Source: a virus (taxonomy: Duplodnaviria > Caudoviricetes). From it: 64,000 bases of DNA. The notes under the pieces are model-generated. The model was not told where the DNA came from and did not search any database. It was given only the letters and a program-made list of their open reading frames with translations. Positions 16,765-62,732 of this stretch are shown here, piece by piece. The translations under genes were made by a program, and so were the position numbers. Where the stretch lies: IMG/VR virus record IMGVR_UViG_3300013121_000022, positions 64,001 to 128,000 of that record; one strand, 5' to 3'. The first letter of the stretch is position 1. Every line of letters begins with the position of its first letter.

Positions 16765-17028
16765 ATGTCAAAAAAGAGTACAGATCAAACAACTTTATTC
16801 GATGAAACTCCTGAATGGCAGAAAGAGTGGCAAGGTATGCCTGAGTTTGTACAAGAGAAGAAAAAGGCATACGCTCAGATTATCGTCCGATTCGATTCGG
16901 AGGAATCGTTGCAAGAGTTTGCCAAACTGATCGATCAAAAACTGACTCGAAAAACCAAAAGCATCTGGCATCCGGCCAAGTCACATTGGGGCGGAGAAAA
17001 TACCAAGAAAGTATATGTCAAATCCTAA
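16765..17028 (+). CDS. hypothetical protein coupled to the GREB1/TAGT-like glycosyltransferase
   Basis: WQGMPEF...IVRF..TKSIWHP; overlaps the next gene. Confidence 0.7.
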   Translation: MSKKSTDQTTLFDETPEWQKEWQGMPEFVQEKKKAYAQIIVRFDSEESLQEFAKLIDQKLTRKTKSIWHPAKSHWGGENTKKVYVKS

Positions 17029-17866
17029 ATATCCAGTGTACATTATCTCGAAAGGTCGCTGGTCAACCCGCTTGACCAGTAAAGCCCTTGAAAAGATGAA
17101 TGTGCCATATCAGATTGTTGTCGAACCACAGGAATTTGACAACTACGCTGAACATATCAACGCAAGTAAAATTTTGGTCTTGCCATTCTCAAATCTTGGA
17201 GAGGGTTCAATTCCCGCTCGTAATTTTGTGTGGGAACATTCTCGACAGATCGGCGCAGATCGACATTGGATTTTGGACGACAACATCGAAGCTTTCAATC
17301 GACTGAATCGCAACATGAAGCCCGAAGTCAGGACGGGAGCGATCTTCAAGGCCGCAGAAGATTTCGTGGATCGATACTATAATGTGGCGCTGGCTGGATT
17401 CAACTACTATTCATTTTGCAAGACTACTGATCGAGTTCCACCGTATTATTTGAATACGCGCATCTACTCCTGTATTCTGATCAAGAACGACTTACCCTAT
17501 CGTTGGAGAGGCATATACAACGAAGATACCGATCTTTCTATTCGGGTACTGAAATTGGGTTTGTGTACCGTCCTGTTCAATGCCTTCCTTGCCGGAAAAG
17601 TAACCACCATGCGAATGAAAGGCGGAAACACCAAAGAATTGTACTCGGACGAAGATGGACGCAAAAAAATGGCCGAGTCATTGCGCGAACAACACCCTGA
17701 TGTAGTCAAGGTGGTTTGGAAGTTCAATCGCTGGCAACATCATGTTGACTATCGGCCATTCAAAAAGAACCGATTGATCCGCAAACATGGAATTGAAATT
17801 CCAAGCGGCATCAATAACTATGAAATGATCTTGAAGGAAAAGAATGAATCCCAACAAACAATGTAA
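17015..17866 (+). CDS. GREB1/TAGT-like glycosyltransferase (probable DNA-base modification)
   Basis: YPVYIISKGR, HWILDDNI, YNEDTDL and MKGGNT motifs. Confidence 0.8.
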   Translation: MSNPKYPVYIISKGRWSTRLTSKALEKMNVPYQIVVEPQEFDNYAEHINASKILVLPFSNLGEGSIPARNFVWEHSRQIGADRHWILDDNIEAFNRLNRNMKPEVRTGAIFKAAEDFVDRYYNVALAGFNYYSFCKTTDRVPPYYLNTRIYSCILIKNDLPYRWRGIYNEDTDLSIRVLKLGLCTVLFNAFLAGKVTTMRMKGGNTKELYSDEDGRKKMAESLREQHPDVVKVVWKFNRWQHHVDYRPFKKNRLIRKHGIEIPSGINNYEMILKEKNESQQTM

Positions 17867-18041
17867 AGGCAAAAAGAAATACAAAAGTTTGTCGGACGCA
17901 GAACACGCGGCTTATATGTTATGGCTACATAATCACAATATCAAAACGGGAGATGTACATGGGTATCAATGTCCAGAATGCAAAAAATACCATGTAGGTC
18001 ATGTTCCGGGCTTATACACCAAACAACTACAGGAGAAATAA
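17844..18041 (+). CDS. small Zn-finger protein
   Basis: CKGK..Y; YQCPECKKYHVGH. Confidence 0.7.
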   Translation: MNPNKQCKGKKKYKSLSDAEHAAYMLWLHNHNIKTGDVHGYQCPECKKYHVGHVPGLYTKQLQEK

Positions 18042-18868
18042 TGGAACAAGTATTGTGCGGGGACTGCCTTGATATTTTACCGTCCATCCCTAGTCAAAGT
18101 GTCGATCTTATTATCACATCCCCACCGTATGCCGAAAGTCGGAAAGACTCGTATGGAGGAATTTCGGCCAAAAAATACGTTGAGTGGTTTTTGCCAATTG
18201 CCAACGAACTCAAAAGAGTTCTTCATCCCAAAGGTAGTTTTTTTCTAAATATCAAACCGCACACCGAGCGCGGCGAAAGATCGATGTATGTCATGGATTT
18301 AATTTTGGCCTTGAAACGAACTACTGGTTTTCGCTTCATCGATGAATATTGCTGGACAAAAAACCCATTTCCTAATGGGGCGCATGGCAGATTCAAGAAT
18401 GGATTTGAGCCTGTGTATCATTTTACAGTGTCGCATCTGAGCAAAATCAACTTCAATCCGTTGGCTTGCGGAACTCCAGTCAAAACATCTAGTGCTCAAC
18501 GGGTTACTCGGAAGCAGGGCGGTAGTCCAGTGAACGGAAGTAAACTAAGTGCAATTCGGCACAGCAATATGAAAAAAATTTCAGTTGCCAGACCATCAAA
18601 TGTTATCCATGCCAACAACGTAAGCAATCAATTTACCGACACAAAAGATCATCCCGCTCCATTTCCAGAAAAGCTGGTCGAGTTTTTTGTTAGATCGTTT
18701 AGTAATGCCGGAATGACGGTGCTCGATCCATTTGCCGGAAGTGGAACGGTTGGCGCTGTATGTCAACGATATAATAGGCAATTCATTTTGATTGAAAAAA
18801 AGCAGGCATATTTAGACATTATTCACCAAAGACTTGAAACCAGCGATCAAATGCTGTTAGAGATATAA
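18041..18868 (+). CDS. N4-cytosine/N6-adenine DNA methyltransferase
   Basis: TSPPY, HPAPFP and LDPFAGSGT motifs. Confidence 0.92.
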   Translation: MEQVLCGDCLDILPSIPSQSVDLIITSPPYAESRKDSYGGISAKKYVEWFLPIANELKRVLHPKGSFFLNIKPHTERGERSMYVMDLILALKRTTGFRFIDEYCWTKNPFPNGAHGRFKNGFEPVYHFTVSHLSKINFNPLACGTPVKTSSAQRVTRKQGGSPVNGSKLSAIRHSNMKKISVARPSNVIHANNVSNQFTDTKDHPAPFPEKLVEFFVRSFSNAGMTVLDPFAGSGTVGAVCQRYNRQFILIEKKQAYLDIIHQRLETSDQMLLEI

Positions 18869-23076: not shown

Positions 23077-24201
23077 GTGATGAATTACGAAATAGTCAAC
23101 GATAACATCTACAATTGGATAAAAACATACTCAGGCGCAAAATTTCATGCGCTTTTTTCTGATCCTCCATACGAAATGAAATTTATGGGAAATCTATGGG
23201 ACGGAACGGGAGTTTCATTCGATCCAGAGATGTGGGCGGGACTATTGAATCATCTACACGATGGTGCTTTTGGACTGGTGTATGGTGGTTCGCGCAGCTA
23301 TCACCGTTTGGCGGCGGCTATTGAAGACGCCGGAGCAATCATTCATCCGTCTATTTTTTTATGGGCTAGAGGTCAGGGAATGCCTCATGCTGTGCCAGTC
23401 AAAAACGAAAAGATTTTCAAAAACCATCGTTATGGCAGGCAGGTGATGAAACCCAATGTTGAACCTGTTGTATTGTTTCAAAAGCCATACAACGAAGATT
23501 ACACTCTAGTAGAAAACATAAAATTGACAGGCGCAGGAACTCTCAATATCGATAATCCGTTTGGTGGCTGGCCGGGTAATTTTATGATGGTTCATAACCC
23601 CGACTGTGAGATTGTTGGTAAAACAAACCGCACTTATGTTTTGAATCGCTGGTCGGAAGGGGCAAGGCCATTTGGTGGAGCGGCAGGCCAAAAATTCCAC
23701 TCTGTGCCAGTTCAACGCGTAGTTGACATCTGGCGATGTTCGGATGGATGTCCGGTTGCCAATATTGGAAGTCAACATGCGGGTGCTGAACAATACTTTG
23801 AGGCGTTTGATTGGGCATATGAACAATTTGAGGGTGATAAAGTCGTTTATGCTTCTAAGCCCAATAAAAAAGAACGCGATTCTGGACTTGAGGATTCTGC
23901 TAATACAGTCAATGCATTTGGTGTTGCTGAATGGGCTTATGGTGAAAAGAGAAAGACAAAGAGAAAAAACTTTCACGCCACAGTCAAGCCGATCAGCGCA
24001 GATCGGCGGTTCGCCTATCTGTTACTTCCCCCCAAAGAATATACTCCCCGTAGGATTTTGAATCCTTTCAGCGGCAGTGGTAGCGAGATGATTGGATCGT
24101 TCTTGGCCGGATGGGATGAATGTGTGGGAATTGAAAACGAATCTCCATATGTCGAGATCGCGCAGGCGCGACTCAAGCATTGGGTAGAAAGTGGAATTTA
24201 G
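23077..24201 (+). CDS. N6-adenine DNA methyltransferase
   Basis: SDPPY, HATVKP and NPFSGSGS motifs. Confidence 0.88.
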   Translation: MMNYEIVNDNIYNWIKTYSGAKFHALFSDPPYEMKFMGNLWDGTGVSFDPEMWAGLLNHLHDGAFGLVYGGSRSYHRLAAAIEDAGAIIHPSIFLWARGQGMPHAVPVKNEKIFKNHRYGRQVMKPNVEPVVLFQKPYNEDYTLVENIKLTGAGTLNIDNPFGGWPGNFMMVHNPDCEIVGKTNRTYVLNRWSEGARPFGGAAGQKFHSVPVQRVVDIWRCSDGCPVANIGSQHAGAEQYFEAFDWAYEQFEGDKVVYASKPNKKERDSGLEDSANTVNAFGVAEWAYGEKRKTKRKNFHATVKPISADRRFAYLLLPPKEYTPRRILNPFSGSGSEMIGSFLAGWDECVGIENESPYVEIAQARLKHWVESGI

Positions 24202-50829: not shown

Positions 50830-50853
50830 GTTTGTAATTCCTTTCTTGAAGTG

Positions 50854-50927
50854 TACTCCCGACAGGACTTGAACCTGCAACCTTGAGATTAAAAGTCTCT
50901 TGCTCTACTCTATTGAGCTACGGGAGC
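50854..50927 (-). tRNA. tRNA-Lys(UUU)
   Basis: Cloverleaf, anticodon loop CTTTTAA. Confidence 0.9.
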
Positions 50928-50932
50928 ATAGG

Positions 50933-51005
50933 TGCATCCGGTGGGACTTGAACCCACAACCTTGAAATTAAGAGTTTCCTGCTCTGCCAATTGAGCTACG
51001 GATAC
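50933..51005 (-). tRNA. tRNA-Lys(CUU)
   Basis: Cloverleaf, anticodon loop CTCTTAA. Confidence 0.9.
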
Positions 51006-51153
51006 ATCGATCTGCGCCGATCATAACACATTGGTCGGTTAGTTGTCAATCAACAACTGGAGTGGAATACACTAACACAACGCCCAAAGTTGGTTGAACT
51101 TCTTTGCAATACACTGCCGAGATCGACAGTTACGATAAACAACACTTCCTGAT

Positions 51154-51651
51154 TCATGTTTCATCCTCCATTTCGATTTCACCACTTTCCAGTGTTGTAA
51201 ATTTTACACCTTGCGCGTAATACTTTACAACTCCCGCATGGCGTTGTAGTTGAACCATGCCGCCATACTCTTTGTAATAGAATGCAACCAGTTCGGTTGC
51301 TAACTGATTGTGTTCTTGGAATTTACATTCATAAAATTTTCCGTCCGGCATCATCCAACCATTAACTTCTTTTTTGAATGGTGTTGGCGTGGGCGGAAAA
51401 TCATTGTAAAACTGAACATACACCGACTCGTATTCATTATTGTACATTGTGTATGTATTAAGAACCTGCAAAGTCGCAGGTTTGATTGTGTAACTCGATC
51501 CAACTCCCCAATACATTCGAGATGGAAACATGGACTTGAAATGAACCAAGTATGGGCCAACTTCACAAGGTGGACATTCTGGATTGGCGTATGTTTCGAT
51601 AAACTTCACAGCATAAATGGTTTCTGTTTTCATGCGGTTATCATAGATCAA
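51154..51651 (-). CDS. hypothetical protein
   Basis: GWMMPDGKFYEC..H motif. Confidence 0.6.
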   Translation of the reverse strand: MIYDNRMKTETIYAVKFIETYANPECPPCEVGPYLVHFKSMFPSRMYWGVGSSYTIKPATLQVLNTYTMYNNEYESVYVQFYNDFPPTPTPFKKEVNGWMMPDGKFYECKFQEHNQLATELVAFYYKEYGGMVQLQRHAGVVKYYAQGVKFTTLESGEIEMEDET

Positions 51652-51708
51652 AAAAGTATTTGTGTCAAGTGTTTGACAAACCCAAAAAATTCAAGTATCA
51701 TTGCCGCC

Positions 51709-52017
51709 ATGAGACAAGTGAGCATCGTATTTATCAAGACGGGAGATCAAAACTCTGACATCCGCCGACTCAAATTGATTTTGGCACAGTCCAAAAAGGG
51801 GCAAGGCGCTGATGGACTGTCTATTGATTTTCGAGAATCGTTCAACGACACATCGGGTGTTGTGGTTGATTTTGAAAATGTTTCGATTGGTGTAGACACA
51901 ATCGATGTATGGCGCAAACGCGGATACTCGGTTTCAGAAGATCAGGTACAAGAAATTCAACCAGAAATATTGACGGACGCGAAACCTGAAACACGAATAG
52001 ATTATAATGATTTTTAG
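51709..52017 (+). CDS. hypothetical protein
   Basis: MRQVS start just after TTGACA...TATCAT promoter (possibly leaderless). Confidence 0.5.
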   Translation: MRQVSIVFIKTGDQNSDIRRLKLILAQSKKGQGADGLSIDFRESFNDTSGVVVDFENVSIGVDTIDVWRKRGYSVSEDQVQEIQPEILTDAKPETRIDYNDF

Positions 52018-52021
52018 AAAT

Positions 52022-52094
52022 GCGCCTGTGGTGTAATGGTCAACATGACACTCTTATAAGGTGTGGATTGAAGGTTCGAGTCCTTTCGGGCGTA
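52022..52094 (+). tRNA. tRNA-Ile(UAU)
   Basis: ACACT-CTTATAA-GGTGT anticodon arm, full cloverleaf. Confidence 0.85.
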
Positions 52095-52098
52095 CAAT

Positions 52099-52170
52099 GG
52101 CGAGGTAGCTAAGCGGTTAAGGCAACTGTCTGCAAAACAGTGATGAAGGGTTCGACTCCCTTTCTCGCCT
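52099..52170 (+). tRNA. tRNA-Cys(GCA)
   Basis: Anticodon loop CTGCAAA, U73. Confidence 0.9.
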
Positions 52171-52172
52171 CT

Positions 52173-52244
52173 GCTTCCGTAGTTCAAAGGATAGAATACC
52201 AGTTTCCTAAACTGCCAATCTCGGTTCGAGTCCGAGCGGAAGCA
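52173..52244 (+). tRNA. tRNA-Arg(CCU)
   Basis: Anticodon loop TTCCTAA. Confidence 0.88.
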
Positions 52245-52262
52245 CAAGAAAGAGAACTATTA

Positions 52263-53357
52263 ATGAAAATCAAAACCGATGTATTACTCTCCGCACTATC
52301 TGATACACTCAAAGCAACAAAAGAAAACGCAACAAACCCAACGCTGGCCTACATCAAAATAGAAAAAGACACAGACTCAAATCGCTGTTCGTTAGTTGGA
52401 ACGAACATGGAGTTTACCGTTGGCCGAACTATCGATGTTGAGGGAAATGAATCTGTTTCGCTGTTGATTGATGGCAGAAAAATTCACGACATCATTTCAT
52501 CTGTGCCTGACGAGTACATCACCGTTACTATTCTATCTCAAAAAATTAAAGTGTCGAGTTCGATTAGCGAACTTACTCTATCAACTTTGGTTGCTGATGA
52601 TTTTCCAAAAGTTGACAACGGTGGAGAACGTGCCGCACTGGTAAGCTCAGATTCTTTGGCGCTTTGGAGAGAGGCGATGTGGTGTACATCTTCTGATGTC
52701 CATGATACCTTTAAGAATGGTGTCAACCTAACGTTTGATAAGTCGGGTAAATCCATTCATGTTGAAACAGGGAATGGATTTAGATGCTCTATTCTGAAAT
52801 GTCCGGCGCAAGAGGTTTATGGCAACTTCAATGCTCTTGTTCCAGTAAACAACTTGATCAAAATGATGTCATTGGCAGTTGAAGACGTATTTGGCATTTT
52901 TGTCTCTAGCTCTTATATTGTCTTTCAATCCAAAAATGGTTTTACTCGATCTGCGCTGATCGAAGCAAAGTTTCCAGAATGGTTGTCAAAAATCAAAAAG
53001 ACTACTTTGGTCGGAATCAAAGTTGACCGAGATTCAACCCTGCAATCTCTCAAGTCGGCCTTGATTGTTGCTAAGGATTCAGCGAACAAGGTGATCTTGA
53101 CGTGGGACAATACTCAAATTCATATTCACGCCGAATCGGAAACCGGAAACGTAGATTTGCATGTTCCGCACAAAGGCTTGATTGGAGATCAGAAAGTCTC
53201 TTTCAAGATTGGTTTTGACTGTATATCGTTGCGCGATGCGCTGACGTTCGGCGGAGATGTTACTATGTGGTTGACTTCTAGTGATCTGTATGCTCGTTTT
53301 AGTCGAGAAAAAGATGATTGGATTGGAGTAGTTATGCCACGAAAGGTGTCACAATGA
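52263..53357 (+). CDS. dnaN: DNA polymerase III beta sliding clamp
   Basis: P.LAYIKI..GTNME, DDFP, TGNGFR, LIEAKFP, C-terminal VMPR. Confidence 0.88.
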   Translation: MKIKTDVLLSALSDTLKATKENATNPTLAYIKIEKDTDSNRCSLVGTNMEFTVGRTIDVEGNESVSLLIDGRKIHDIISSVPDEYITVTILSQKIKVSSSISELTLSTLVADDFPKVDNGGERAALVSSDSLALWREAMWCTSSDVHDTFKNGVNLTFDKSGKSIHVETGNGFRCSILKCPAQEVYGNFNALVPVNNLIKMMSLAVEDVFGIFVSSSYIVFQSKNGFTRSALIEAKFPEWLSKIKKTTLVGIKVDRDSTLQSLKSALIVAKDSANKVILTWDNTQIHIHAESETGNVDLHVPHKGLIGDQKVSFKIGFDCISLRDALTFGGDVTMWLTSSDLYARFSREKDDWIGVVMPRKVSQ

Positions 53358-53971
53358 ACAATACTACTTTGGTTGTTACTTTGCTGGATGAATCTGGATC
53401 GATGCTTGAACAAGACAAATCAGAAGTGGCAGTTCTAGCCTTCAATCAATTTGTCAAGGATCAAAACAATATTCCCGGATGCTATTTTTCGTTACATGTG
53501 TTTTCAGATCGCCAGAAGATCGCGGGTACTCCGCGCACCATTCCCCATCTTCGGACTATATTTGAAAATGTTCCGTCAAATATAGTCAAATTCACACGCG
53601 ATCAGTATGATCCAGAGGGTTCTACTCCATTGTACGATGCGTTATCGGATTTGATTGATTTGATTGGTATGCGATTGTCTCTGTTGCCAGAATATGATCG
53701 TCCTTCTAAAGTTATTTTTGTGGTTATCACAGACGGTCAGGAAAATTCCAGTAAGCATACAAAGTATGCGGACTTGATGGAAAAAATTAAACATCAACAA
53801 GAAAAGTATTCTTGGGAGTTTGTTTTTGCGATGTCTGGTGTTACATATAACGAATTTCAAAGCGTCGCTAATTTCTCGACAACATTTTCTGCGTCTGACT
53901 CCAAAACGGTTGAAGCGAGTTATGCGAGTTCATCGCGATATGTCACCAGTTCAAGAACCGATAAACACTAA
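53354..53971 (+). CDS. vWA domain protein
   Basis: LLDESGSM, GSTPLYDA and ITDGQENSS motifs. Confidence 0.88.
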   Translation: MNNTTLVVTLLDESGSMLEQDKSEVAVLAFNQFVKDQNNIPGCYFSLHVFSDRQKIAGTPRTIPHLRTIFENVPSNIVKFTRDQYDPEGSTPLYDALSDLIDLIGMRLSLLPEYDRPSKVIFVVITDGQENSSKHTKYADLMEKIKHQQEKYSWEFVFAMSGVTYNEFQSVANFSTTFSASDSKTVEASYASSSRYVTSSRTDKH

Positions 53972-53972
53972 A

Positions 53973-54554
53973 ATGCGATCTCGGCGAATTGTTTTTACGT
54001 CCGATCAACATTTCGGGCACGCGAATATCATCAAGTATCAACATCGTCCATATAAAAATGTGGACGAGATGGATTCTGCCTTAATTGAATCGTGGAACGC
54101 AAAAGTCGATCACGATGATATTGTGTTTCATCTTGGAGATTTTACACTTGGCGATGAACGACAGGCCGCAAGATATTTCTCTCGACTGAACGGGGCGATT
54201 GGCGTTGTACGCGGCTCGCACGATGACAGATGGTATAAAAATTCGGTTTACTATCGATCTCGATCTGGAATTCCAGTAAAGTTACTCGGAGATCGTTTCG
54301 ACTATTCATCTGCGATGATCGGTGAGGACGGGCGTAATCTGTTGATCGTGATGTCTCATTATGCAATGGCGCGATGGCCGATTTCGCATTATGGATCGCT
54401 ACATGTATTTGGACACTCACATGGAAACTTTGAAGGCATCGGAAAATCAGTTGATGTTGGGGTTGACGTTTATCCAAACCTATTGTATATTGAGGAAGTA
54501 GTCGAAATCTTGGCGAAAAAATCATCACCTGAGAACCATCTGAGAAAGAGTTGA
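53973..54554 (+). CDS. calcineurin-like metallophosphoesterase
   Basis: SDQHFGH, HLGD, GSHD and GHSH motifs. Confidence 0.9.
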   Translation: MRSRRIVFTSDQHFGHANIIKYQHRPYKNVDEMDSALIESWNAKVDHDDIVFHLGDFTLGDERQAARYFSRLNGAIGVVRGSHDDRWYKNSVYYRSRSGIPVKLLGDRFDYSSAMIGEDGRNLLIVMSHYAMARWPISHYGSLHVFGHSHGNFEGIGKSVDVGVDVYPNLLYIEEVVEILAKKSSPENHLRKS

Positions 54555-55126
54555 AAATGGGACAGCGATATTACTTTCCGAACGTCAAAAACTGGCAAGA
54601 TGCCTTGAATAGCTTGGATTTGGGGTTACAACATTTTGGGTTTACCATGAAGTTGTCCGGCGTCATGTTTCAGGGTATGGGCAAGACGGTTGTGCTTGTG
54701 TTGCCTTCCTCTGAACTTCCTCATGCCGCAGTTGAAGTTGTCGAACTTGATGCCGAGCAAGCGGCGGCATTGGTCAAGCAAACCGATCAACCCGAAGTGT
54801 TGGCTGGACACGATGGACAAGACAAGGTATGGGTTCGTAAACTTCAATATGAAGTGTCGGGTCATACACAACAACAAGTTTGGTGGGCGGATCACTTTAC
54901 CTGCCAGTATTGTGGACGTGGATTGCCGGAAGTTCAGTTGACCATCGATCATTTTCATCCGCTGGACTTGGGCGGAGTAAACGATTCGAGCAACTATCTG
55001 ACAGCTTGCAAGAAATGCAATAAGAATAAGGGCAATACGCCTGCTTTGAAGTGGTGCGCCGACAATCATCTGGATTACAATTTGCTGGTTGATTATTTGC
55101 GCCAGAGAAAATTAACTCGTAAGTGA
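54551..55126 (+). CDS. protein with C-terminal HNH domain
   Basis: CQYCG...TIDHFHP...N..TAC..CN..K. Confidence 0.8.
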   Translation: MKMGQRYYFPNVKNWQDALNSLDLGLQHFGFTMKLSGVMFQGMGKTVVLVLPSSELPHAAVEVVELDAEQAAALVKQTDQPEVLAGHDGQDKVWVRKLQYEVSGHTQQQVWWADHFTCQYCGRGLPEVQLTIDHFHPLDLGGVNDSSNYLTACKKCNKNKGNTPALKWCADNHLDYNLLVDYLRQRKLTRK

Positions 55127-55140
55127 TACAATAGCGAGAT

Positions 55141-55213
55141 GCCGCTATAGTTCAGTTGGCAGAACGTCATCTTGGTAAGATGAAGGTGGTGGGTTCGATC
55201 CCCACTGGCGGCT
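55141..55213 (+). tRNA. tRNA-Thr(GGU)
   Basis: Anticodon loop TTGGTAA. Confidence 0.9.
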
Positions 55214-55227
55214 CTTTGGAGTATCTA

Positions 55228-55440
55228 ATGGACGTTATCAATTTAGCAACCGGACAATGTGTAAGCTATAGTTTATCCGAAAAACAGGCTTTGATTGCGG
55301 CAGTTCAACAGTTTGATCGTAAAAACTGGCAGACTTGGAACTATCCAACTCCAGATCAAGTTGTATTTATTGAGGGACAACATACAATCGCATTGGGCGA
55401 TTGGTGTGTACTCAAAACAGAAAGAGAGACAGCATGTTAG
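55228..55440 (+). CDS. hypothetical protein
   Basis: GGAG SD and MDVINL start after the tRNA. Confidence 0.55.
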   Translation: MDVINLATGQCVSYSLSEKQALIAAVQQFDRKNWQTWNYPTPDQVVFIEGQHTIALGDWCVLKTERETAC

Positions 55441-55682
55441 TTTATCGAGTATCAGTCAAGGCAGTGGTCACAGAAGAAAACGAAAAGAATACCGATCAGG
55501 TCAAGATAAAATTTGTGGACATCGGCATTTACGATGTTCAGGCCAACGACTATAATGCGGCGGCTGAAAAAGCTTATGAGGTTGCGAAAGACAATCCAAC
55601 TTACAAAGAAATTACAGCTGACGTTGAAGTTGAAGTGGTCGCAACCAATATCAAACTTCTGTCAAAGCCAGATGAATTGTAG
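55434..55682 (+). CDS. hypothetical protein
   Basis: MLVYRV start overlapping the upstream ORF. Confidence 0.55.
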   Translation: MLVYRVSVKAVVTEENEKNTDQVKIKFVDIGIYDVQANDYNAAAEKAYEVAKDNPTYKEITADVEVEVVATNIKLLSKPDEL

Positions 55683-55811
55683 TTCTTGACAGATTGAATT
55701 TTTGAGATTAGAATGTAAATATCTTTGCTATCAACGTTTCTAGGTCATCAGGACTTAGCGCATAAACGAAACGGACGAGTGATAGTGAGCGTACTCACTC
55801 AAAACTTGAAC

Positions 55812-56231
55812 ATGAAAAATAACTTGAAAACTCCATGCAGATACTGTCCGTTTAGATCGTCGTCTTTACCGAGATGGTTGGGCGGTATTGAACCCGAACA
55901 ATTTATCAATGATGCATTGAGCGAGTCTGGAAATGCATGTCACATTGATCTCGAACATCAACGTGAATTTTGGCAGAACGAGCAGGACAGTGGTCAACTT
56001 AACAATGTGGATGACAGTATTATCGATGAGTTGATCGAATCTGATGTTGAACAATGCGCTGGAGCACTAGCTTTTGGTTCGATTATGGGCAAGGTATATC
56101 GAAATAAAAACAAAGAAGCGCAACGCAGGATGGTCGGAAACGTTGACGGTATAATGAACTATAAAGAATTTTTAGTTCATCATGCCAGTACAGATAATTT
56201 CAGGCGCAAGTCTGATGGAAAAAGATTTTGA
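55812..56231 (+). CDS. Cys-rich hypothetical protein
   Basis: PCRYCPFR...ACH...QCAGAL motif. Confidence 0.65.
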   Translation: MKNNLKTPCRYCPFRSSSLPRWLGGIEPEQFINDALSESGNACHIDLEHQREFWQNEQDSGQLNNVDDSIIDELIESDVEQCAGALAFGSIMGKVYRNKNKEAQRRMVGNVDGIMNYKEFLVHHASTDNFRRKSDGKRF

Positions 56232-56264
56232 CAAAAACCATCCGTAAAATATTGCGATGGTTAT

Positions 56265-56351
56265 GCAATCGTGGTGGAACTGGTATACACGCAAGCCTAA
56301 GAAGCTTGTTCCCGTTATAAAGGATTGGAGGTTCAAATCCTCTCGATTGCA
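56265..56351 (+). tRNA. tRNA-Leu(AAG)
   Basis: CAAGC-CTAAGAA-GCTTG, long variable arm, A73. Confidence 0.85.
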
Positions 56352-56429
56352 CAAAGGTGTTGACTAGATATATATAGTCGCCTTGCTGTTGAGGCCAGAT
56401 TCCGAAAACACTGGAACAACAGTATACCC

Positions 56430-56515
56430 GCATGAGTGGCGAAATGGTAGACGCGCAATGCTCAGAACGTTGTGACCTTAAATAAGTCGTAAGGGTTCGA
56501 GTCCCTTTTCATGCA
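56430..56515 (+). tRNA. tRNA-Leu(CAG)
   Basis: Anticodon loop CTCAGAA, long variable arm. Confidence 0.88.
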
Positions 56516-56572
56516 CAGACTTATGTACCACGCGTACAAAAAGTTACAGAGTCCCGCAATGGACTCCGGTTA

Positions 56573-56655
56573 GCCGATATGGTGGAATGCAGACACACTA
56601 CGTTTAGAGCGTAGCGATCTAAAAAATCGTGCAGGTTCAAATCCTGTTATCGGCA
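56573..56655 (+). tRNA. tRNA-Leu(UAG)
   Basis: CTACG-TTTAGAG-CGTAG. Confidence 0.88.
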
Positions 56656-56738
56656 CAAGACTGATGTTCAAATAATCCGTATCCAGATTCTTTTGAACTG
56701 AGTCACCGATGCAATCGGCGGATAACGGTTGCATCAAC

Positions 56739-56822
56739 GCCTGATTGGTGGAATGGTAGACACACGACACTTAAAATGTCGCGATCTCAACAATCGTAAG
56801 AGTTCGAGTCTCTTATCAGGCA
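56739..56822 (+). tRNA. tRNA-Leu(UAA)
   Basis: CGACA-CTTAAAA-TGTCG. Confidence 0.88.
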
Positions 56823-56840
56823 CACGAAAGGTTTATAAAT

Positions 56841-57434
56841 ATGACAATCAAAGCAATCGTCTTTGATCTTGATGGGGTTTTGGTGGATACGCCTGAACTT
56901 CACTATGAAGCTCTCAACCAAGCGTTGGGGCTTTTTGGTTTTAATATCTCTCGACAAGATCACGATTCAAAATTCAATGGCCTGCCAACTCGGACTAAAC
57001 TGGAAATGCTAAACGTTGATCCGGCGATTCGCGGATTGGTAATGGAACTAAAACAACAATATACTCGGCAGGCAATTTCCAAAATTCAACCAAACTATCA
57101 AAAGATTATGATGCTGAGAAGTCTATCGTGGCGCTATCATCTTGGAGTTGCTTCTAACGCACTCCAAGACACCTGTTATTCGATATTGGAAGCAGCTCGA
57201 CTGGATTCGTATTTTACAACTGTGTGGGGCGGAGATGGGGTGAAAAAAACAAAGCCCGATCCAGAGATATATAGGAAGATTATCAAAAAACTTGAAGTAC
57301 AACCAGATCAATGCTTGGTTCTGGAAGACACTCAATACGGTGTTCAGGCCGCACTAGGTGCTGGTGCTCAATGCATTCAAGTAACCTATCCTCAAGTTCA
57401 TAGTGGATTATTCGTGCGAAAGGGCTTATTATGA
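56841..57434 (+). CDS. HAD-family phosphatase
   Basis: FDLDGVLVD, ASN, KPDPEIY and LED motifs. Confidence 0.92.
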   Translation: MTIKAIVFDLDGVLVDTPELHYEALNQALGLFGFNISRQDHDSKFNGLPTRTKLEMLNVDPAIRGLVMELKQQYTRQAISKIQPNYQKIMMLRSLSWRYHLGVASNALQDTCYSILEAARLDSYFTTVWGGDGVKKTKPDPEIYRKIIKKLEVQPDQCLVLEDTQYGVQAALGAGAQCIQVTYPQVHSGLFVRKGLL

Positions 57435-58183
57435 ATATAGTGATTCCCATGTCGGGCGCGGGAAAAAGATTTTTGGATGCAGGCTATACCGATCCAAAAC
57501 CATTCATTTTAGTCGATGGTCAACCCATGATTATGCGTGTGACCAACAACGTCTCGGTTAGATCATCCAAAAATCATAACAACATAGTTTGGCTGGTTAG
57601 AACTGAACACCTTGATCGCGCTCAAGATATTCAGCAGGAAATGCGAGATCGCAATATCATTCCCAATGCAACCTACAACATCATAAAAGTTTCCGGCCTC
57701 ACACAAGGCGCGGCGTGTACTGTATTAATGGCCTCTGGTATTATCAATAACGATCAACCTTTAATTATTGCTAACTCCGATCAACTGACCGATTCTTCGG
57801 TTGATGGATTTGTTGAGTATTGTCAAAAGAACAACGCGGATGGCGGTATTATCACGTTTCGATCAAGCGCCGACAAATGGAGTTATGTTCGTTTGGATAA
57901 GCAAGGAATATTGGTTGATGAAGTTGCTGAAAAAGTTGTCATTTCAAATCTTGCCACTCTTGGAATTTACTATTTTCGGCGTGGTTCTGATTTTTGTTCA
58001 GCGGCTGTGAAATCTATCAGGTATAACATGCGGCATCGCAATGAATTCTATGTTGCACCTGTATTCAATGAAATGATTTTGCTTGGCAAGCGAATTTATC
58101 ACTACGAAATTCCAGATTATTGTGCACATGGACTTGGAACTCCCGAAGACCTTGAAAGGTATTTACTGCATGGACGCCAATAA
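57431..58183 (+). CDS. sugar nucleotidyltransferase-like protein
   Basis: IPMSGAGKRF...PKP, NSDQ, AEK, EFYVAP and LGTPEDL motifs. Confidence 0.88.
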   Translation: MNIVIPMSGAGKRFLDAGYTDPKPFILVDGQPMIMRVTNNVSVRSSKNHNNIVWLVRTEHLDRAQDIQQEMRDRNIIPNATYNIIKVSGLTQGAACTVLMASGIINNDQPLIIANSDQLTDSSVDGFVEYCQKNNADGGIITFRSSADKWSYVRLDKQGILVDEVAEKVVISNLATLGIYYFRRGSDFCSAAVKSIRYNMRHRNEFYVAPVFNEMILLGKRIYHYEIPDYCAHGLGTPEDLERYLLHGRQ

Positions 58184-58898
58184 CTCATATACACAAATGC
58201 AGAAAAAATATTACGAAGAAAACGCGACGATAATGGCAGTGGAGGATCATCGCGGCCACAATAACAATCCAGATTATTACGGAATTCTATTATCAGACAT
58301 CACAACCAATCCAGAATACTGGACTGGTAAAACCGCCCTAGACTTTGGTTGTGGAACTGGACGAAATATTGCCAATCTGTATCGTTTAGCAAAGTGGAAA
58401 TTTGTCGATGGTTGCGACATTGCGCGAAACAACTTGTATGAAGCACATCGTTTATTGACGGAACGTGGTGTTTCCGGTTTTACACTTTACCCCGTCTCAG
58501 GCGTTGATCTTGGTGGTATCCCAAGTAAAAAATATGACTTTGTAATGTCAACCATTGTTCTTCAACACATCGCCGTGTGGTCAATTCGACTGAGTATTTT
58601 AACTGACATCTTTCGAGTGATGAAATCGGGCGGATTATTCTCGTTTCAAGTTGTTAAATATCCGTTGCCGCGAGATCGATATAATATCGCTGACTATCAT
58701 GAAGACAAATGGGATGCGCCAAATACAAATGGAGGGTACGATTTTAGCGTAGATAACGAACAAGATTTGATAAATGACTTGACACGCATTGGGTTTGAAG
58801 TGATTGAAACAATAAGCAGACCTGAATGGGAATATATCAATCAAGAATACGCTCACAATAACAATCGTTGGGTATTTGTTAAGGCGCGTAAACCATGA
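58170..58898 (+). CDS. class I SAM-dependent methyltransferase
   Basis: ALDFGCGTGRN and YDFVMSTIVLQH motifs. Confidence 0.88.
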   Translation: MDANNSYTQMQKKYYEENATIMAVEDHRGHNNNPDYYGILLSDITTNPEYWTGKTALDFGCGTGRNIANLYRLAKWKFVDGCDIARNNLYEAHRLLTERGVSGFTLYPVSGVDLGGIPSKKYDFVMSTIVLQHIAVWSIRLSILTDIFRVMKSGGLFSFQVVKYPLPRDRYNIADYHEDKWDAPNTNGGYDFSVDNEQDLINDLTRIGFEVIETISRPEWEYINQEYAHNNNRWVFVKARKP

Positions 58899-59653
58899 TA
58901 AATGGTACGTATATCTTTCATGTTTTTGAAACACTCACGATTTCAAATTTGTATTCGGCTATCGATAGCATAGTAAGTCAGACGTTCGATAGCAATCAGT
59001 TTGACTTCGTGTTGTACAATTCGTCGCGTTATTGGGAAAATTCCGAGAGATTGCTCGATGGAATTCAGTCTCGGTTGCATGGCATGTTTCGGAGTTTTAG
59101 ATTTATCAATCCAGACGTTCCTACCGACTCGACTCTAGCTGATTTACAGTGGCAAATCAGCAACATTGATGGATCGGACTTCTATTTCACACATAAGGCC
59201 GATTTTGTGTTAGGAGATAAAACTATCCAGAGAGTTGCGAATTTATTTGAGAACGTACATCAGCCTCTTTATGTTAGTTTTTGCAAGTTCGATGTCAGAG
59301 AAGATGTCAACGATCTTGAAACTTATATACTCTCAGGTAGATCGTTTGACAGAATTTTAGATCGTGCGGATGCGTGGGATGTAACTGCTTGCCTTCCAAA
59401 AGATTGGGAAACCCACGACTACAGGTTTCTTGGCTATCGGGGATGGGATGGAACAATGCATTGCTACAACGAACAAGCTAGACGAAATATACAACTTACT
59501 GACTTTTGCAGCTTGGACACTGTGCAATCAAATCGAACAAACGGCATCGACTGGATTTTTGGTGATACTCGATTTTGGGCGCTTCATAAGTTTCATGCCT
59601 TACCTAACGGCAGGGGCGATGCCCGTAAAGATTTAGATGGAAAACGATTCTAA
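58895..59653 (+). CDS. glycosyltransferase-like hypothetical protein
   Basis: SAIDSIVSQT and HKAD (DxD-like) motifs; context. Confidence 0.5.
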   Translation: MINGTYIFHVFETLTISNLYSAIDSIVSQTFDSNQFDFVLYNSSRYWENSERLLDGIQSRLHGMFRSFRFINPDVPTDSTLADLQWQISNIDGSDFYFTHKADFVLGDKTIQRVANLFENVHQPLYVSFCKFDVREDVNDLETYILSGRSFDRILDRADAWDVTACLPKDWETHDYRFLGYRGWDGTMHCYNEQARRNIQLTDFCSLDTVQSNRTNGIDWIFGDTRFWALHKFHALPNGRGDARKDLDGKRF

Positions 59654-60282
59654 TGAACACCCTCATTGTCATCGCGCATCACAATGGATCGCGGTACATT
59701 CCGGCTTTGCTGGATAGCTTGAAGTGGCATGATCGGAAAGATATTGTCGTTATAGATACTGGCTCAACGTCCAACGAACTCGATCTATTGCCACAAGATA
59801 TACAGGTCGATGAAATTTATGGTGGATATTGTGTTGGCGCATATAAATGGGCATATCGATGGTATCCTGATTACGACTCGTATTTTTTTATGCACGACTC
59901 CATGAGGGCAAAAACAAATTTTCTTCCGGCCTTTCAGTCAAAAGGCGATGTTGTTGCATGGATCGATTTTCCAATGGATTATGGTGAACAAGAACGCGAG
60001 TACATTGAATCGCAGTACGGGAAGGATAATCATTCGCCCAACGCAATCTTTGGGCCAATTTTTTACGCCACTCATCAGGCAATGCAGGGTCTGGCGAACA
60101 ACAATAAATTTCCGCGCAACCCTAAAAATCGAGCGGAACTTTGCGCCTCTGAACGTGCTTTTGCCATAGCTTTTCATCAGTGTGGATTTCGAGTCGATCA
60201 TCTTGAAGAATATGACAACCAGCGTTTGGACATTAGTCGAGATTACGTGTTGTTTGATAAGTTCAGACCAAATCGAGTATAA
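59653..60282 (+). CDS. GT2-like glycosyltransferase
   Basis: VVIDTGS, FMHDS and ERAF motifs. Confidence 0.7.
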   Translation: MNTLIVIAHHNGSRYIPALLDSLKWHDRKDIVVIDTGSTSNELDLLPQDIQVDEIYGGYCVGAYKWAYRWYPDYDSYFFMHDSMRAKTNFLPAFQSKGDVVAWIDFPMDYGEQEREYIESQYGKDNHSPNAIFGPIFYATHQAMQGLANNNKFPRNPKNRAELCASERAFAIAFHQCGFRVDHLEEYDNQRLDISRDYVLFDKFRPNRV

Positions 60283-60284
60283 AT

Positions 60285-60527
60285 ATGTTCAATAAGTATG
60301 TGTATGAAATTTTGAAGACAAGCATTGTGTGGTATCCGATCATTGGCTTGGTTTTTGCGACAGGAGTAATGATTCGGATGATTCTAGATGATCCGCTATG
60401 GTTTATTAGGCACATAAATCAACAGCGTGAACGACATATGTGGTTTGCGATGATATTGATGTCTGCCTGCCTTTGGCCTTATTTTCTTGGTAGACTGATT
60501 TGGAGTAGTGTTCAAAAACTTTTATAG
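60285..60527 (+). CDS. small membrane protein
   Basis: Two hydrophobic helices. Confidence 0.55.
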   Translation: MFNKYVYEILKTSIVWYPIIGLVFATGVMIRMILDDPLWFIRHINQQRERHMWFAMILMSACLWPYFLGRLIWSSVQKLL

Positions 60528-60537
60528 GACAACTAAC

Positions 60538-60747
60538 ATGCCATACCGAAATGTTCGTAATGATGCAAGAAATTCCGATCCAAACGTTACTTTGCAAGAA
60601 TTAATGCAAATGTTGAGCACTGTAATAAGTTGTGGAGGATGTGCCAACTTGACATCTGTTGCCTCACAACATACTTGCAAGACATGTGGCCGGACTCTGT
60701 GTGGCGAATGCGGTAATCTCTGTAAAGATCATCGAAAGGTTTCGTGA
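60538..60747 (+). CDS. small Zn-finger protein
   Basis: CGGC, CKTC, CGEC and CKDH motifs. Confidence 0.55.
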   Translation: MPYRNVRNDARNSDPNVTLQELMQMLSTVISCGGCANLTSVASQHTCKTCGRTLCGECGNLCKDHRKVS

Positions 60748-60816
60748 TGTTCATGAATGAAACTGGTATTTCCATAGGATTTGATACGGTAATTCCACCA
60801 AACGATTTTTGCGTTT

Positions 60817-61182
60817 TTGTTGTACCCATATTTGATATCAAGTAGTCATTCGTTTTCACCGAGCAAACCGCCTGAACTTAGATGCTGTAGAGTTGCTAAC
60901 ACAGACCTGAGTGTTGTAGTTGAATCAATTAATTTCCGCTCACGTAACGAAAATTTTTTTGGAGCTGTTTTTGCTCTGTATGCTCTAACCGCAGGATCGT
61001 TATCCAAAATTATTACATTGGAAAAACCTCAAGTCTGCTTCTCTGTTCTATCACAATCTAATTCAGGTCGTTCAAATCACCGATTGGCGGTTGAGGCATT
61101 ATACTGCGACAAACCCATTGTGTTTGCATATGTAGATCGACATCGAAAGACATTCCTTGACTTAGTTGCTGAACTAGGGTAA
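60817..61182 (+). CDS. hypothetical protein (start uncertain)
   Basis: 121-aa ORF with a TTG start and no clear SD. Confidence 0.35.
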   Translation: MLYPYLISSSHSFSPSKPPELRCCRVANTDLSVVVESINFRSRNENFFGAVFALYALTAGSLSKIITLEKPQVCFSVLSQSNSGRSNHRLAVEALYCDKPIVFAYVDRHRKTFLDLVAELG

Positions 61183-61196
61183 TATCAACGTGATCG

Positions 61197-61569
61197 GCGC
61201 AGATCAAGTTGTCGAGCTCGAAAGAGTTAGGAACTTCCCGACGATACAGGAGCAATCCTGAAAACCCTCCACATGAAAACAGCAAGTGTGGACAGTTCGA
61301 CTGAACTGATGTCAACGGCAACAGAGAACATTCCGCTCGAAAGAGTAACGGGTGAAAAGGACGGTGATACCCGTCCGGCATGTCAAGGTAACTTGCTTGC
61401 ATAGGCGACAGGACAGGGGATCGCAAGGTGGCGCAAGATAGGCTACGGTTTATCTTGTAGAACCGCAGTATAAACGGTACGACAGAATAACACTCAGTCG
61501 CACTAGGATATACCATCAACCCGATGAGAAAGATGACAACCTAAACAGAATCGGGGGTATGATCGGCGC
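61197..61569 (+). ncRNA. rnpB: RNase P RNA (divergent)
   Basis: P1 GCGCAGATCA/TGATCGGCGC; P2 GTTGTC/GACAAC; P3 GAAA hairpin; P4 AGGAACTTCCCGA pairs with ACAGAATCGGGGGTA (bulged U); GCAACAGAGAA, GGGTGAAAAGG and GCAAG conserved regions. Confidence 0.8.
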
Positions 61570-61649
61570 AGATTGGTTCTTGACAAAAAAATATAACCGA
61601 TCCATAATAATCTCAACTTCCACTATCTCACAGAAAGAGGATACCGAAC

Positions 61650-61826
61650 ATGGAACTCAAAATTGTTTCTGCAAAAGCTGGTGATCAGTACGTGAATCTG
61701 GTGGGTCAAACATTTCCGGTGGTTCGTGAACTGGAAACAATCTACGTGATTGAAGTTGAGGGCAAAAGCGTCTATGTTCGTGAGGACGACTGCGAAGTAA
61801 AAATCATTGAACCAGTTGCGGCCTAA
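61650..61826 (+). CDS. small beta-rich protein (58 aa)
   Basis: TTGACA...CATAAT promoter, GAGG SD, MELKIVSAKAG... Confidence 0.65.
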   Translation: MELKIVSAKAGDQYVNLVGQTFPVVRELETIYVIEVEGKSVYVREDDCEVKIIEPVAA

Positions 61827-61886
61827 ATAATTATTCTACTTGACAGGCTTTATCAAGTCAGGTAGAATAATTTGCGTGAGGGTCAT

Positions 61887-62120
61887 ATGAAATATACCGA
61901 TAAGTTTGAAGTGGACACTAACGGTAAAATCATTGGTGCTGAAACGCATCCGAATGCGCCCGTAATTGTAAATTTTTATCGTGTTGTCAACGGCAAGAAG
62001 CGATACAATAAACTTGCGAAGCGGTTACATTTTTTTACCGAACAACACTTTCAGAGCAACACCGATTTCTTGAATCGAATGAGCGCACGTAAAGATCGGG
62101 TATATTATCGGGCAAACTAA
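61887..62120 (+). CDS. hypothetical protein
   Basis: TTGACA...TAGAAT promoter, GAGG SD, MKYTDK start. Confidence 0.6.
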   Translation: MKYTDKFEVDTNGKIIGAETHPNAPVIVNFYRVVNGKKRYNKLAKRLHFFTEQHFQSNTDFLNRMSARKDRVYYRAN

Positions 62121-62127
62121 ATAACAA

Positions 62128-62198
62128 GCGGGTATAGTATAACGGTATTATAAAAGCCTTCCAAGTTTAAGACGCGGGTTCGACTCCCGCTATCCGCT
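62128..62198 (+). tRNA. tRNA-Gly(UCC)
   Basis: Anticodon loop CTTCCAA, GCG acceptor. Confidence 0.88.
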
Positions 62199-62339
62199 CA
62201 GAGAATAGCACGAGTGACTAACGTTGCGAAATGGTTGAATACAGAGTCCTGACGTTGATCTATACTGCTTAGGCACACATGGATCATGAGGTCAAAAAAC
62301 TAATCCTCAACACATCCGGCATTATGCTAATTTTGCCAT

Positions 62340-62412
62340 GCGGTTGTAATTCAGTTGGTAGAATATCTCTTTGCCAAAGAGAATGTCGTGGGTTCGAGTC
62401 CCATCAGCCGCT
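62340..62412 (+). tRNA. tRNA-Gly(GCC)
   Basis: Anticodon loop TTGCCAA. Confidence 0.9.
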
Positions 62413-62483
62413 CTTGTTATAAAGTCCTAAACTGAAATAGACCATAGTTCCGACAACATGTATCAACCTTACGCCACGATTAA

Positions 62484-62555
62484 GCCGATGTAGCTCAATG
62501 GTAGAGCAACTTCCTTGTAAGAAGAAGGTTAAGGGTTCAAGTCCCTTCATTGGCT
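62484..62555 (+). tRNA. tRNA-Thr(UGU)
   Basis: Anticodon loop CTTGTAA. Confidence 0.9.
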
Positions 62556-62622
62556 CAGTGTCCCATCAACAATTTATAGCAGGAGTCTTATCCTACTATG
62601 GACAGGGAATATGGGACAATCT

Positions 62623-62695
62623 GCCGGATTAGCTCAGTTGGTAGAGTATCTTTTTCGTAAAAAGAGGGTCACGAGTTCGATTCTCGTATCCGGCT
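62623..62695 (+). tRNA. tRNA-Thr(CGU)
   Basis: Anticodon loop TTCGTAA. Confidence 0.9.
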
Positions 62696-62732
62696 CAGGT
62701 TCGTTTCATTGTGTCTCATTTAGGAATGAGAC

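Follow-up and report, generated by a model that had tools for sequence, protein, structure and literature searches.

The window analysed here, a stretch of 64,000 nucleotides corresponding to bases 64001-128000 of the viral record IMGVR_UViG_3300013121_000022, carries at positions 61192-61574 of its plus strand a gene whose sequence is that of a full-length homologue of bacterial class-A RNase P RNA. The gene was modelled from a match to Rfam family RF00010, a helix-by-helix reconstruction of the fold and an alignment with 15 Anaerolineae homologues. The RF00010 match spans 61196-61574 (plus strand) and model positions 1-367 of 367 at 58.9 bits (E = 2.5e-17 for the 801 nt searched and 1.3e-18 for the whole genome), so that the covariance-model search suggested in an initial annotation, which had called the locus a phage-encoded RNase P RNA from its letters, supports it over its full length with E near 1e-18. 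However, the Rfam gathering cut-off for this family is 100 bits, an operational threshold and not a biological feature, and at the gathering thresholds the window yields tRNAs only and no RNase P, just as that annotation had anticipated in expecting standard searches to fail. The strand has a minimum-free-energy z-score of -3.78 relative to shuffles, and the conserved regions CR-I to CR-V, said earlier to occur in the correct order, were all located in that order (AGGAACUUCC for CR-I, followed by ACAGAGAAC, GGGUGAAAAGG, AGAUGAC and ACAGAAUCGGGGGUA), and A67 and G68 of CR-I (E. coli numbering), which as a rule do not vary, are altered here as they are across the donor clade described below. A 153-aa open reading frame at 61058-61519 on the minus strand runs antisense through the gene; having no match in a Pfam search, it was rejected as a real gene and is most likely spurious, although automated gene calling would probably report it and so hide the RNase P RNA. 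The features of the locus, all on the plus strand, are as follows.

61157-61185, plus: predicted sigma-70-type promoter, TTGACT-17-TAATAT, 9/12 match
61192-61574, plus: RNase P RNA gene of 383 nt with P1 complete; class A, Anaerolineae variant-P4 type
61192-61205, plus: P1 5' strand, exact copy of the dispersed motif GATCGGCGCAGATC
61208-61214, plus: P2 5' strand, pairing with 61534-61540 (7/7)
61215-61228, plus: short P3 hairpin with a GAAA loop, 5/5 pairs
61229-61242, plus: CR-I with the P4 5' strand, AGGAACUUCCCGAC, including bulged U61236; identical in all 16 aligned sequences
61230-61241, plus: P4 5' strand, GGAACUUCCCGA, read directly from the sequence
61242-61259, plus: P5 5' strand and an extra 4-bp hairpin with a GCAA loop; P5 pairs with 61419-61423 (5/5)
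61265-61418, plus: specificity domain, comprising P7, P8, P9, P10, P11, P12, P13 and P14
61424-61464, plus: J5/15 (GCAAGG), P15 and a remodelled, continuous 11-bp P16/17 hairpin
61468-61513, plus: long P18-like hairpin with a UAACAC loop, alike in bacterial relatives
61514-61526, plus: further 4-bp hairpin, alike in bacterial relatives
61527-61559, plus: CR-IV (AGAUGAC), P2 3' strand, and CR-V with the P4 3' strand
61545-61559, plus: CR-V with the P4 3' strand, ACAGAAUCGGGGGUA, read directly from the sequence
61561-61574, plus: P1 3' strand, motif copy with one mismatch (...GATT), GATCGGCGCAGATT

Every pair of the model was verified by script, and 115 of 119 pairs in 22 helices or helix segments are standard; the manual secondary-structure model that had been proposed as a check thus returns a catalytic core that folds. 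All eight pairs of P4 are standard (A-U, C-G, U-G, then bulged U61236, then C-G, C-G, C-G, G-C and A-U), the helix and its bulged U are invariant across the 16 aligned sequences, and the P4 sequence, compensatory changes and bulged U given in the initial annotation proved exact. Relative to the canonical helix in E. coli numbering, we take the changes to be A67-U359 to C-G, G68-C358 to U-G, G72-C355 to C-G and G74-C353 to A-U. A67 and G68 of P4, a metal-binding site, are held to be universal. The other class-A helices are present as well (P13 6/6, P14 8/9, P16/17 11/11 and P18 15/15), and the specificity domain has a short P12 closed by a GAAA loop, a P14 closed by GUAA, and the conserved J11/12 ACAGAGAAC and J12/13 GGGUGAAAAGG. 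The RNA therefore resembles E. coli M1 RNA (rnpB, RF00010) in its five conserved regions, in P1-P5 and P7-P18, in the P4 pseudoknot with its bulged U, in the GNRA loop on P14 and the J5/15 GCAAGG, and in matching the covariance model from end to end, whereas it differs in being phage-encoded, in scoring below the cut-off, in lacking the GGU/CCA-binding loop, and in having additional hairpins, one behind P5 and another behind P18. The hairpin after P5, with its GCAA loop, sits where bacterial relatives carry a longer one. At the periphery, the P15/16 UGG bulge that is invariant in the 15 bacterial relatives is replaced in the phage RNA by paired CAA, L18 (AUAACAC) is not of the GNRA type, and L9 is GACU, likewise not GNRA, unlike that of most relatives, which fits the replacement of P1.

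The initial annotation read the rewritten P4 as a feature of the phage and as a hint of altered specificity, and neither part of that reading withstood a wider survey. When both P4 strands were joined by a gap and scanned as one pattern, matches were found on five contigs in JGI metagenomes, whose genes are cellular (AspRS, DegV, TldD/PmbA and peptidases), and, in exact form, in 12 records among 185,579 GTDB species genomes (one genome per species), all of them Chloroflexota/Anaerolineae (labelled Chloroflexi, Anaerolineae or Anaerolineales); every such locus is an RF00010 match, at 52-134 bits. No other viral contig in IMG/VR matched the two-strand pattern, and IMG/VR scans with each P4 strand as a single 14- or 15-mer gave chance matches only, blastn of the RNA to those loci being empty. 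In an even sample of 61 Anaerolineae genomes, 53 have one RF00010 match each, with bimodal scores: 31 of the 53 lie at or above 194 bits and 22 at 52-129 bits. The canonical P4 (AGGAAAGUCC...) is present in the 27 readable high scorers, and the variant, AGGAACUUCCCGAC with ACAGAAUCGGG(G/A)GUA, in 18 of 19 fetched low scorers; the phage RNA matches the variant strands exactly. The variant subclade, 22 of the 53 matched genomes, thus has C and U in place of A67 and G68, with partners that compensate. Since variant-clade genomes have one RF00010 match each, and since RnpA is encoded in all five of those tested (91-103 bits; no PIN_5, HARP-like, protein was found in the same five), the variant-P4 RNA is, on this genomic evidence, the working housekeeping enzyme of a large bacterial clade, and a P4 shared with it offers no argument for altered specificity of the phage RNA. 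The low Rfam score has its explanation in the divergence of this clade as well, as the sole RNase P RNAs of variant-P4 Anaerolineae genomes score 52.4-99.9 bits in many cases; rnpB genes of the clade are consequently under-annotated, and many, lying below the cut-off, would go unannotated. What stands of the initial annotation is therefore the phage-encoded RNase P RNA itself, and what falls is P4 as a phage trait pointing to a changed specificity.

The bacterial loci of this type (L235-L251 and L318-L336) lie inside tRNA clusters, where rnpB directly abuts the tmRNA gene (L236:2673-3415 and L248:483-1250) or is separated by no more than about 250 nt from the 6S RNA gene (L237:7786-8598 and L244:2801-3613), an unusual grouping of housekeeping RNA genes in the variant-clade Anaerolineae. 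One contig, L242, on which a 52-bit RNase P RNA stands among 23 tRNAs, was considered as another phage and rejected: it carries cellular genes, namely VWA, Kelch, O-antigen ligase and DsbA, and the RNA is the sole RNase P RNA of that genome.

In a FastTree phylogeny of 41 aligned sequences rooted on six canonical-P4 Anaerolineae, the phage RNA nests among the variant-clade sequences at local supports of 0.81-0.89, and it is 49-59% identical to clade members against 42-47% to canonical-P4 ones. The donor, and by extension the host, was probably an Anaerolineae of the variant clade, although the exact sister lineage is uncertain because the terminal branch is long (1.47 substitutions per site, where the median is 0.25). 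The phage RNA has in common with the rnpB of this clade both P4 strands, letter for letter, the extra hairpins, a P3 that is short in part of the clade too, the score range (52-129 bits in the clade) and a position among tRNA genes; it differs in its G+C content (49% against 51-69%), its shorter P9 and P12, its remodelled P16/17 without the UGG bulge, its P1 made of a phage motif, and the lack of rnpA in the genome. With bacterial rnpB lying among tRNA genes, capture along with such genes is easy to imagine, and it may then be asked whether the phage copy is a mere passenger, a decaying pseudogene taken up with host tRNA genes and put to no use. The ease of co-capture would suit such an origin, as would the position of the phage RNA as the most divergent of its clade and the failure to see it conserved in phage relatives in IMG/VR. 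However, the pattern of substitution speaks otherwise. In the family alignment of 16 sequences, 95.4% of cells pair, compared with 78.6% in shuffles and about 40% in slid controls, and 70 pairs show double-sided changes, compared with 44 in shuffles, none of 500 of which reaches 70. Of 117 positions that never vary among the 15 bacteria, the phage copy retains 96, and where it departs, both partners of a pair have mostly changed. Counted on a plain sequence alignment (MAFFT), 27 pairs are double-sided compensations relative to the bacterial majority, 11 of them of pair types absent from every bacterium. They include changes in P2 (CCGUC/GACGG to UUGUC/GACAA, with two double changes), P5 (CUCC/GGAG to CGAU/AUCG), P10 (GAC/GUC to GUC/GAC), P13 (GGUGGG/CCCACC to GGACGG/CCGUCC) and the last hairpin (CAGG/CCUG to CAUC/GAUG). 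The 33 pairs that appear broken on the same alignment fall mainly in helices that are out of register there, including P12, P13, P14, P16/17 and P18, and that are paired within the phage's own fold. An unconstrained copy at such divergence would not retain 115 of 119 pairs, so that selection on the fold most likely maintains the phage copy. A relaxed constraint could likewise produce the long branch, but the compensatory pattern speaks against it. With 27 double-sided compensations despite only 54-58% identity to bacterial copies, a predicted promoter of its own placed exactly at P1, and a P1 that consists of phage sequence, an idle passenger appears quite improbable.

The construction of P1 ties the gene to the genome in which it lies. 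The 14-mer GATCGGCGCAGATC is a near-palindrome with 29 sites in the genome, and at up to two mismatches the window holds 23 matches where 0.4 would be expected; it is absent from about 280 foreign loci. The earlier proposal that P1 is formed by two copies of a dispersed motif holds, with an exact copy at 61192-61205 and a copy with one mismatch at 61561-61574; since the motif is almost its own complement, direct copies of it can pair with one another, here through 12 of 14 antiparallel pairs interrupted by two purine-purine mismatches (G-A and A-G). At a density of about 8e-5 sites per base and strand, the chance of two copies falling within 2 nt of both P1 positions is estimated at about 1e-7, so that either the motif supplied the material for a rebuilt P1, or some mechanism caused the gene to lie between motif copies. 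The motif sites of the window are at 1324, 6149, 12045, 17248, 19159, 23991, 28917, 39515, 51009, 52948, 61192 and 61561. In genome coordinates, the motif is found on the minus strand towards both ends (1-17 kb and 160-171 kb) and on the plus strand in between (26-146 kb), apart from two blocks of minus-strand genes, one near 65-70 kb and one near 115-117 kb. Because it occurs in coding sequence in all reading frames and in non-coding spacers, with this strand polarity along the genome, the distribution suggests a polar signal acting at the level of DNA and not of RNA. The start predicted for the upstream promoter, at about 61192, coincides with the first base of P1, and the -10 hexamer of that promoter overlaps the stop codon of the upstream open reading frame (60817-61182). 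No intrinsic terminator was found 3' of the gene, and the next promoter downstream lies at 61580-61608.

The same motif bears on whether the record itself is to be trusted at this point. An assembly chimera or host contamination would make the RNA gene simply bacterial, and its G+C content of 49%, above the 43% of the genome, and the bacterial nature of its relatives could be read in this way. However, the gene sits in the middle of a complete 172,504-bp contig (about 172.5 kb) with direct terminal repeats, is flanked on both sides by phage open reading frames and phage-type promoters, ends on both sides in a motif that has 29 genomic copies and is missing from the foreign loci, and is only about 58% identical to the closest bacterial sequence, so that a chimeric origin deserves next to no credence. 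The 172.5-kb genome encodes a large terminase (TerL), a portal protein and a 1468-aa tape-measure protein. It has no near cultured relative and a single distant one in IMG/VR: the locus is without a blastn match among 50,697 GenBank phages, TerL has a single moderately close relative in IMG/VR (58% identity, on a 12-kb fragment), no close cultured relative was found for the helicase, a flanking 121-aa open reading frame has zero relatives in IMG/VR, and IMG/VR searches with TerL, the flanking open reading frame and the two-strand P4 pattern found no close phage relative with an RNase P RNA gene. Elsewhere in the genome, a TET-associated glycosyltransferase (PF20691, 167 bits) adjoins several DNA methyltransferases, including a ParB-methylase fusion (window positions 17015-17866, 17969-18868 and 23077-24201; L152:8036-9361), which suggests from gene content that the phage DNA may be hypermodified.

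A substrate for the RNA may be sought in the phage's own tRNA complement. The genome carries 46 tRNA genes and a tmRNA gene, 14 of the 46 tRNA genes falling within the window (50853-62696), tRNA-Gly at 62128-62199 among them. An encoded CCA is absent from 44 of the 46, and a CCA-adding enzyme is encoded by the phage (L153:2292-3989). The base at -1 is U (T) in 38 of the 46, often as AT directly before the first base, and bacterial RNase P, from established work on the E. coli enzyme, prefers U at this position. Loss of the UGG bulge in P15/16 fits substrates without CCA. The tmRNA gene (RF00023, 56 bits) lies outside the window at genome positions 163325-163640 (L154:15325-15640) and has an unusually long predicted tag, DNTSKEVAQFEAMFAQFASQGAVIAA, which does not resemble GEPQLALAA, the tag of Anaerolineae tmRNAs adjoining rnpB; a further protein has a weak match to RNA 2'-phosphotransferase (L153:13262-15829). 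Maturation of tRNAs by the phage RNA is plausible in this setting, and the RNA is most likely a working subunit that would use host RnpA to mature the CCA-less tRNAs of the phage. It could alternatively fold and bind host RnpA or pre-tRNAs without cutting, as a decoy or regulator that titrates RnpA off the host RNase P, for example, or shields the tRNA-like RNAs of the phage. The remodelled substrate-contacting periphery, with the P15/16 UGG bulge lost and an L9 that is not GNRA, would accommodate such a non-catalytic mimic, as would the long branch and the fact that no rnpA was found in the phage genome, so that the host protein must be shared. However, a decoy would have no need of a catalytic core that is identical throughout to the core of the donor clade's housekeeping enzymes (P4, the bulged U, and the CR-I, CR-IV, CR-V, J5/15, J11/12 and J12/13 motifs), and the lost candidate contact to CCA agrees with tRNA genes that lack it; a mimic of this kind is accordingly a distinctly unlikely account.

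Another scenario, tentative and on balance doubtful, grants the RNA catalysis and adds a specialization. The phage ribozyme may have been retooled, through loss of the P15/16 UGG bulge and of the L9-P1 contact and through a P1 rebuilt from the polar 14-mer, to favour the phage's own RNAs with a borrowed host RnpA; its targets would be CCA-less pre-tRNAs with U at -1, the tmRNA, and tRNA-like RNAs beside a Ro60-like gene. If true, phage translation could go on being supplied once the host is shut off, or in the face of host defences aimed at tRNA maturation.

To our knowledge, RNase P has been treated as a strictly cellular housekeeping ribozyme, and a literature search turned up neither a phage RNase P RNA nor the Anaerolineae P4 variant. 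The statement in the initial annotation that such genes are seldom reported in phages is thus borne out by the literature searched, which has none, yet the genes themselves recur in public viral contigs. The canonical-P4 pattern is found in 33 IMG/VR contigs, and RF00010 matches of 181-280 bits lie inside tRNA arrays in seven of eight large IMG/VR viral contigs scanned (L274, L260, L283, L286, L285, L255 and L259; 114-497 kb), of which L274 belongs to a 369-kb genome that is complete, bears direct terminal repeats and has a Terminase_6N gene. Searches of these large contigs gave no match to Terminase_6C and, to Terminase_6N, a match in G009 alone. These viral RNAs are like the present one in that a ribozyme gene lies among many phage tRNA genes, but they have a canonical P4, score 181-280 bits and go with terminases unrelated to that of the present phage, which points to their having been acquired independently, from hosts of other lineages. 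As a precedent, the diverged RNase P RNAs of CPR bacteria come nearest; these are picked up solely at scores under the Rfam cut-offs (Lui et al., 2021; PMC8172020). The likeness lies in a lineage-wide divergence under the curated threshold and in the frequent absence of the CCA-binding motif; the CPR RNAs, however, are cellular and lose P12-P14 and P16/17, whereas the phage RNA keeps all helices and is changed inside P4. The phage RNA is thus an unusually divergent member of an unpublished, recurrent class, and contributes to that class an example whose donor lineage is clear and whose P1 comes from the phage.

Homology, completeness of the fold, compensatory maintenance, donor lineage and phage context are what the analysis shows. 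Together they support a model, held here with a joint probability of roughly 0.7, of a genuine phage RNase P RNA gene, derived from Anaerolineae and selected, that is expressed and assembles with host RnpA to mature phage tRNAs; the figure covers donor, selection, expression, RnpA assembly and tRNA cutting together, and it is expression, assembly with host RnpA, catalysis and benefit to the phage that we infer. This model proposes that the RNA descends from the housekeeping rnpB of a variant-P4 subclade of Anaerolineae (Chloroflexota), which was probably captured together with, or beside, tRNA genes. Transcription would begin at the first base of P1 from the predicted sigma-70-type promoter, and, the phage having no rnpA of its own, the RNA would most likely assemble with the RnpA protein of the host. 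The resulting enzyme could then remove the 5' leaders of the 46 phage tRNAs, nearly all without an encoded CCA and mostly with U at -1, and would probably process the phage tmRNA and tRNA-like RNAs too, adding to or replacing the RNase P capacity of the host during infection.

A catalytic RNA alongside 46 tRNAs, a tmRNA and a CCA-adding enzyme extends the share of the tRNA supply chain that is carried by a phage. The rare P4 signature permits a clean assignment of the donor, probably the host, to a poorly cultured clade of Anaerolineae, and the long branch with its many compensatory changes argues that the RNA was kept working for a long time. In the cellular relatives, the supposedly universal P4 bases A67 and G68 are replaced across a whole bacterial clade. 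Donor, long maintenance and replacement within P4 are all testable by standard ribozyme assays.
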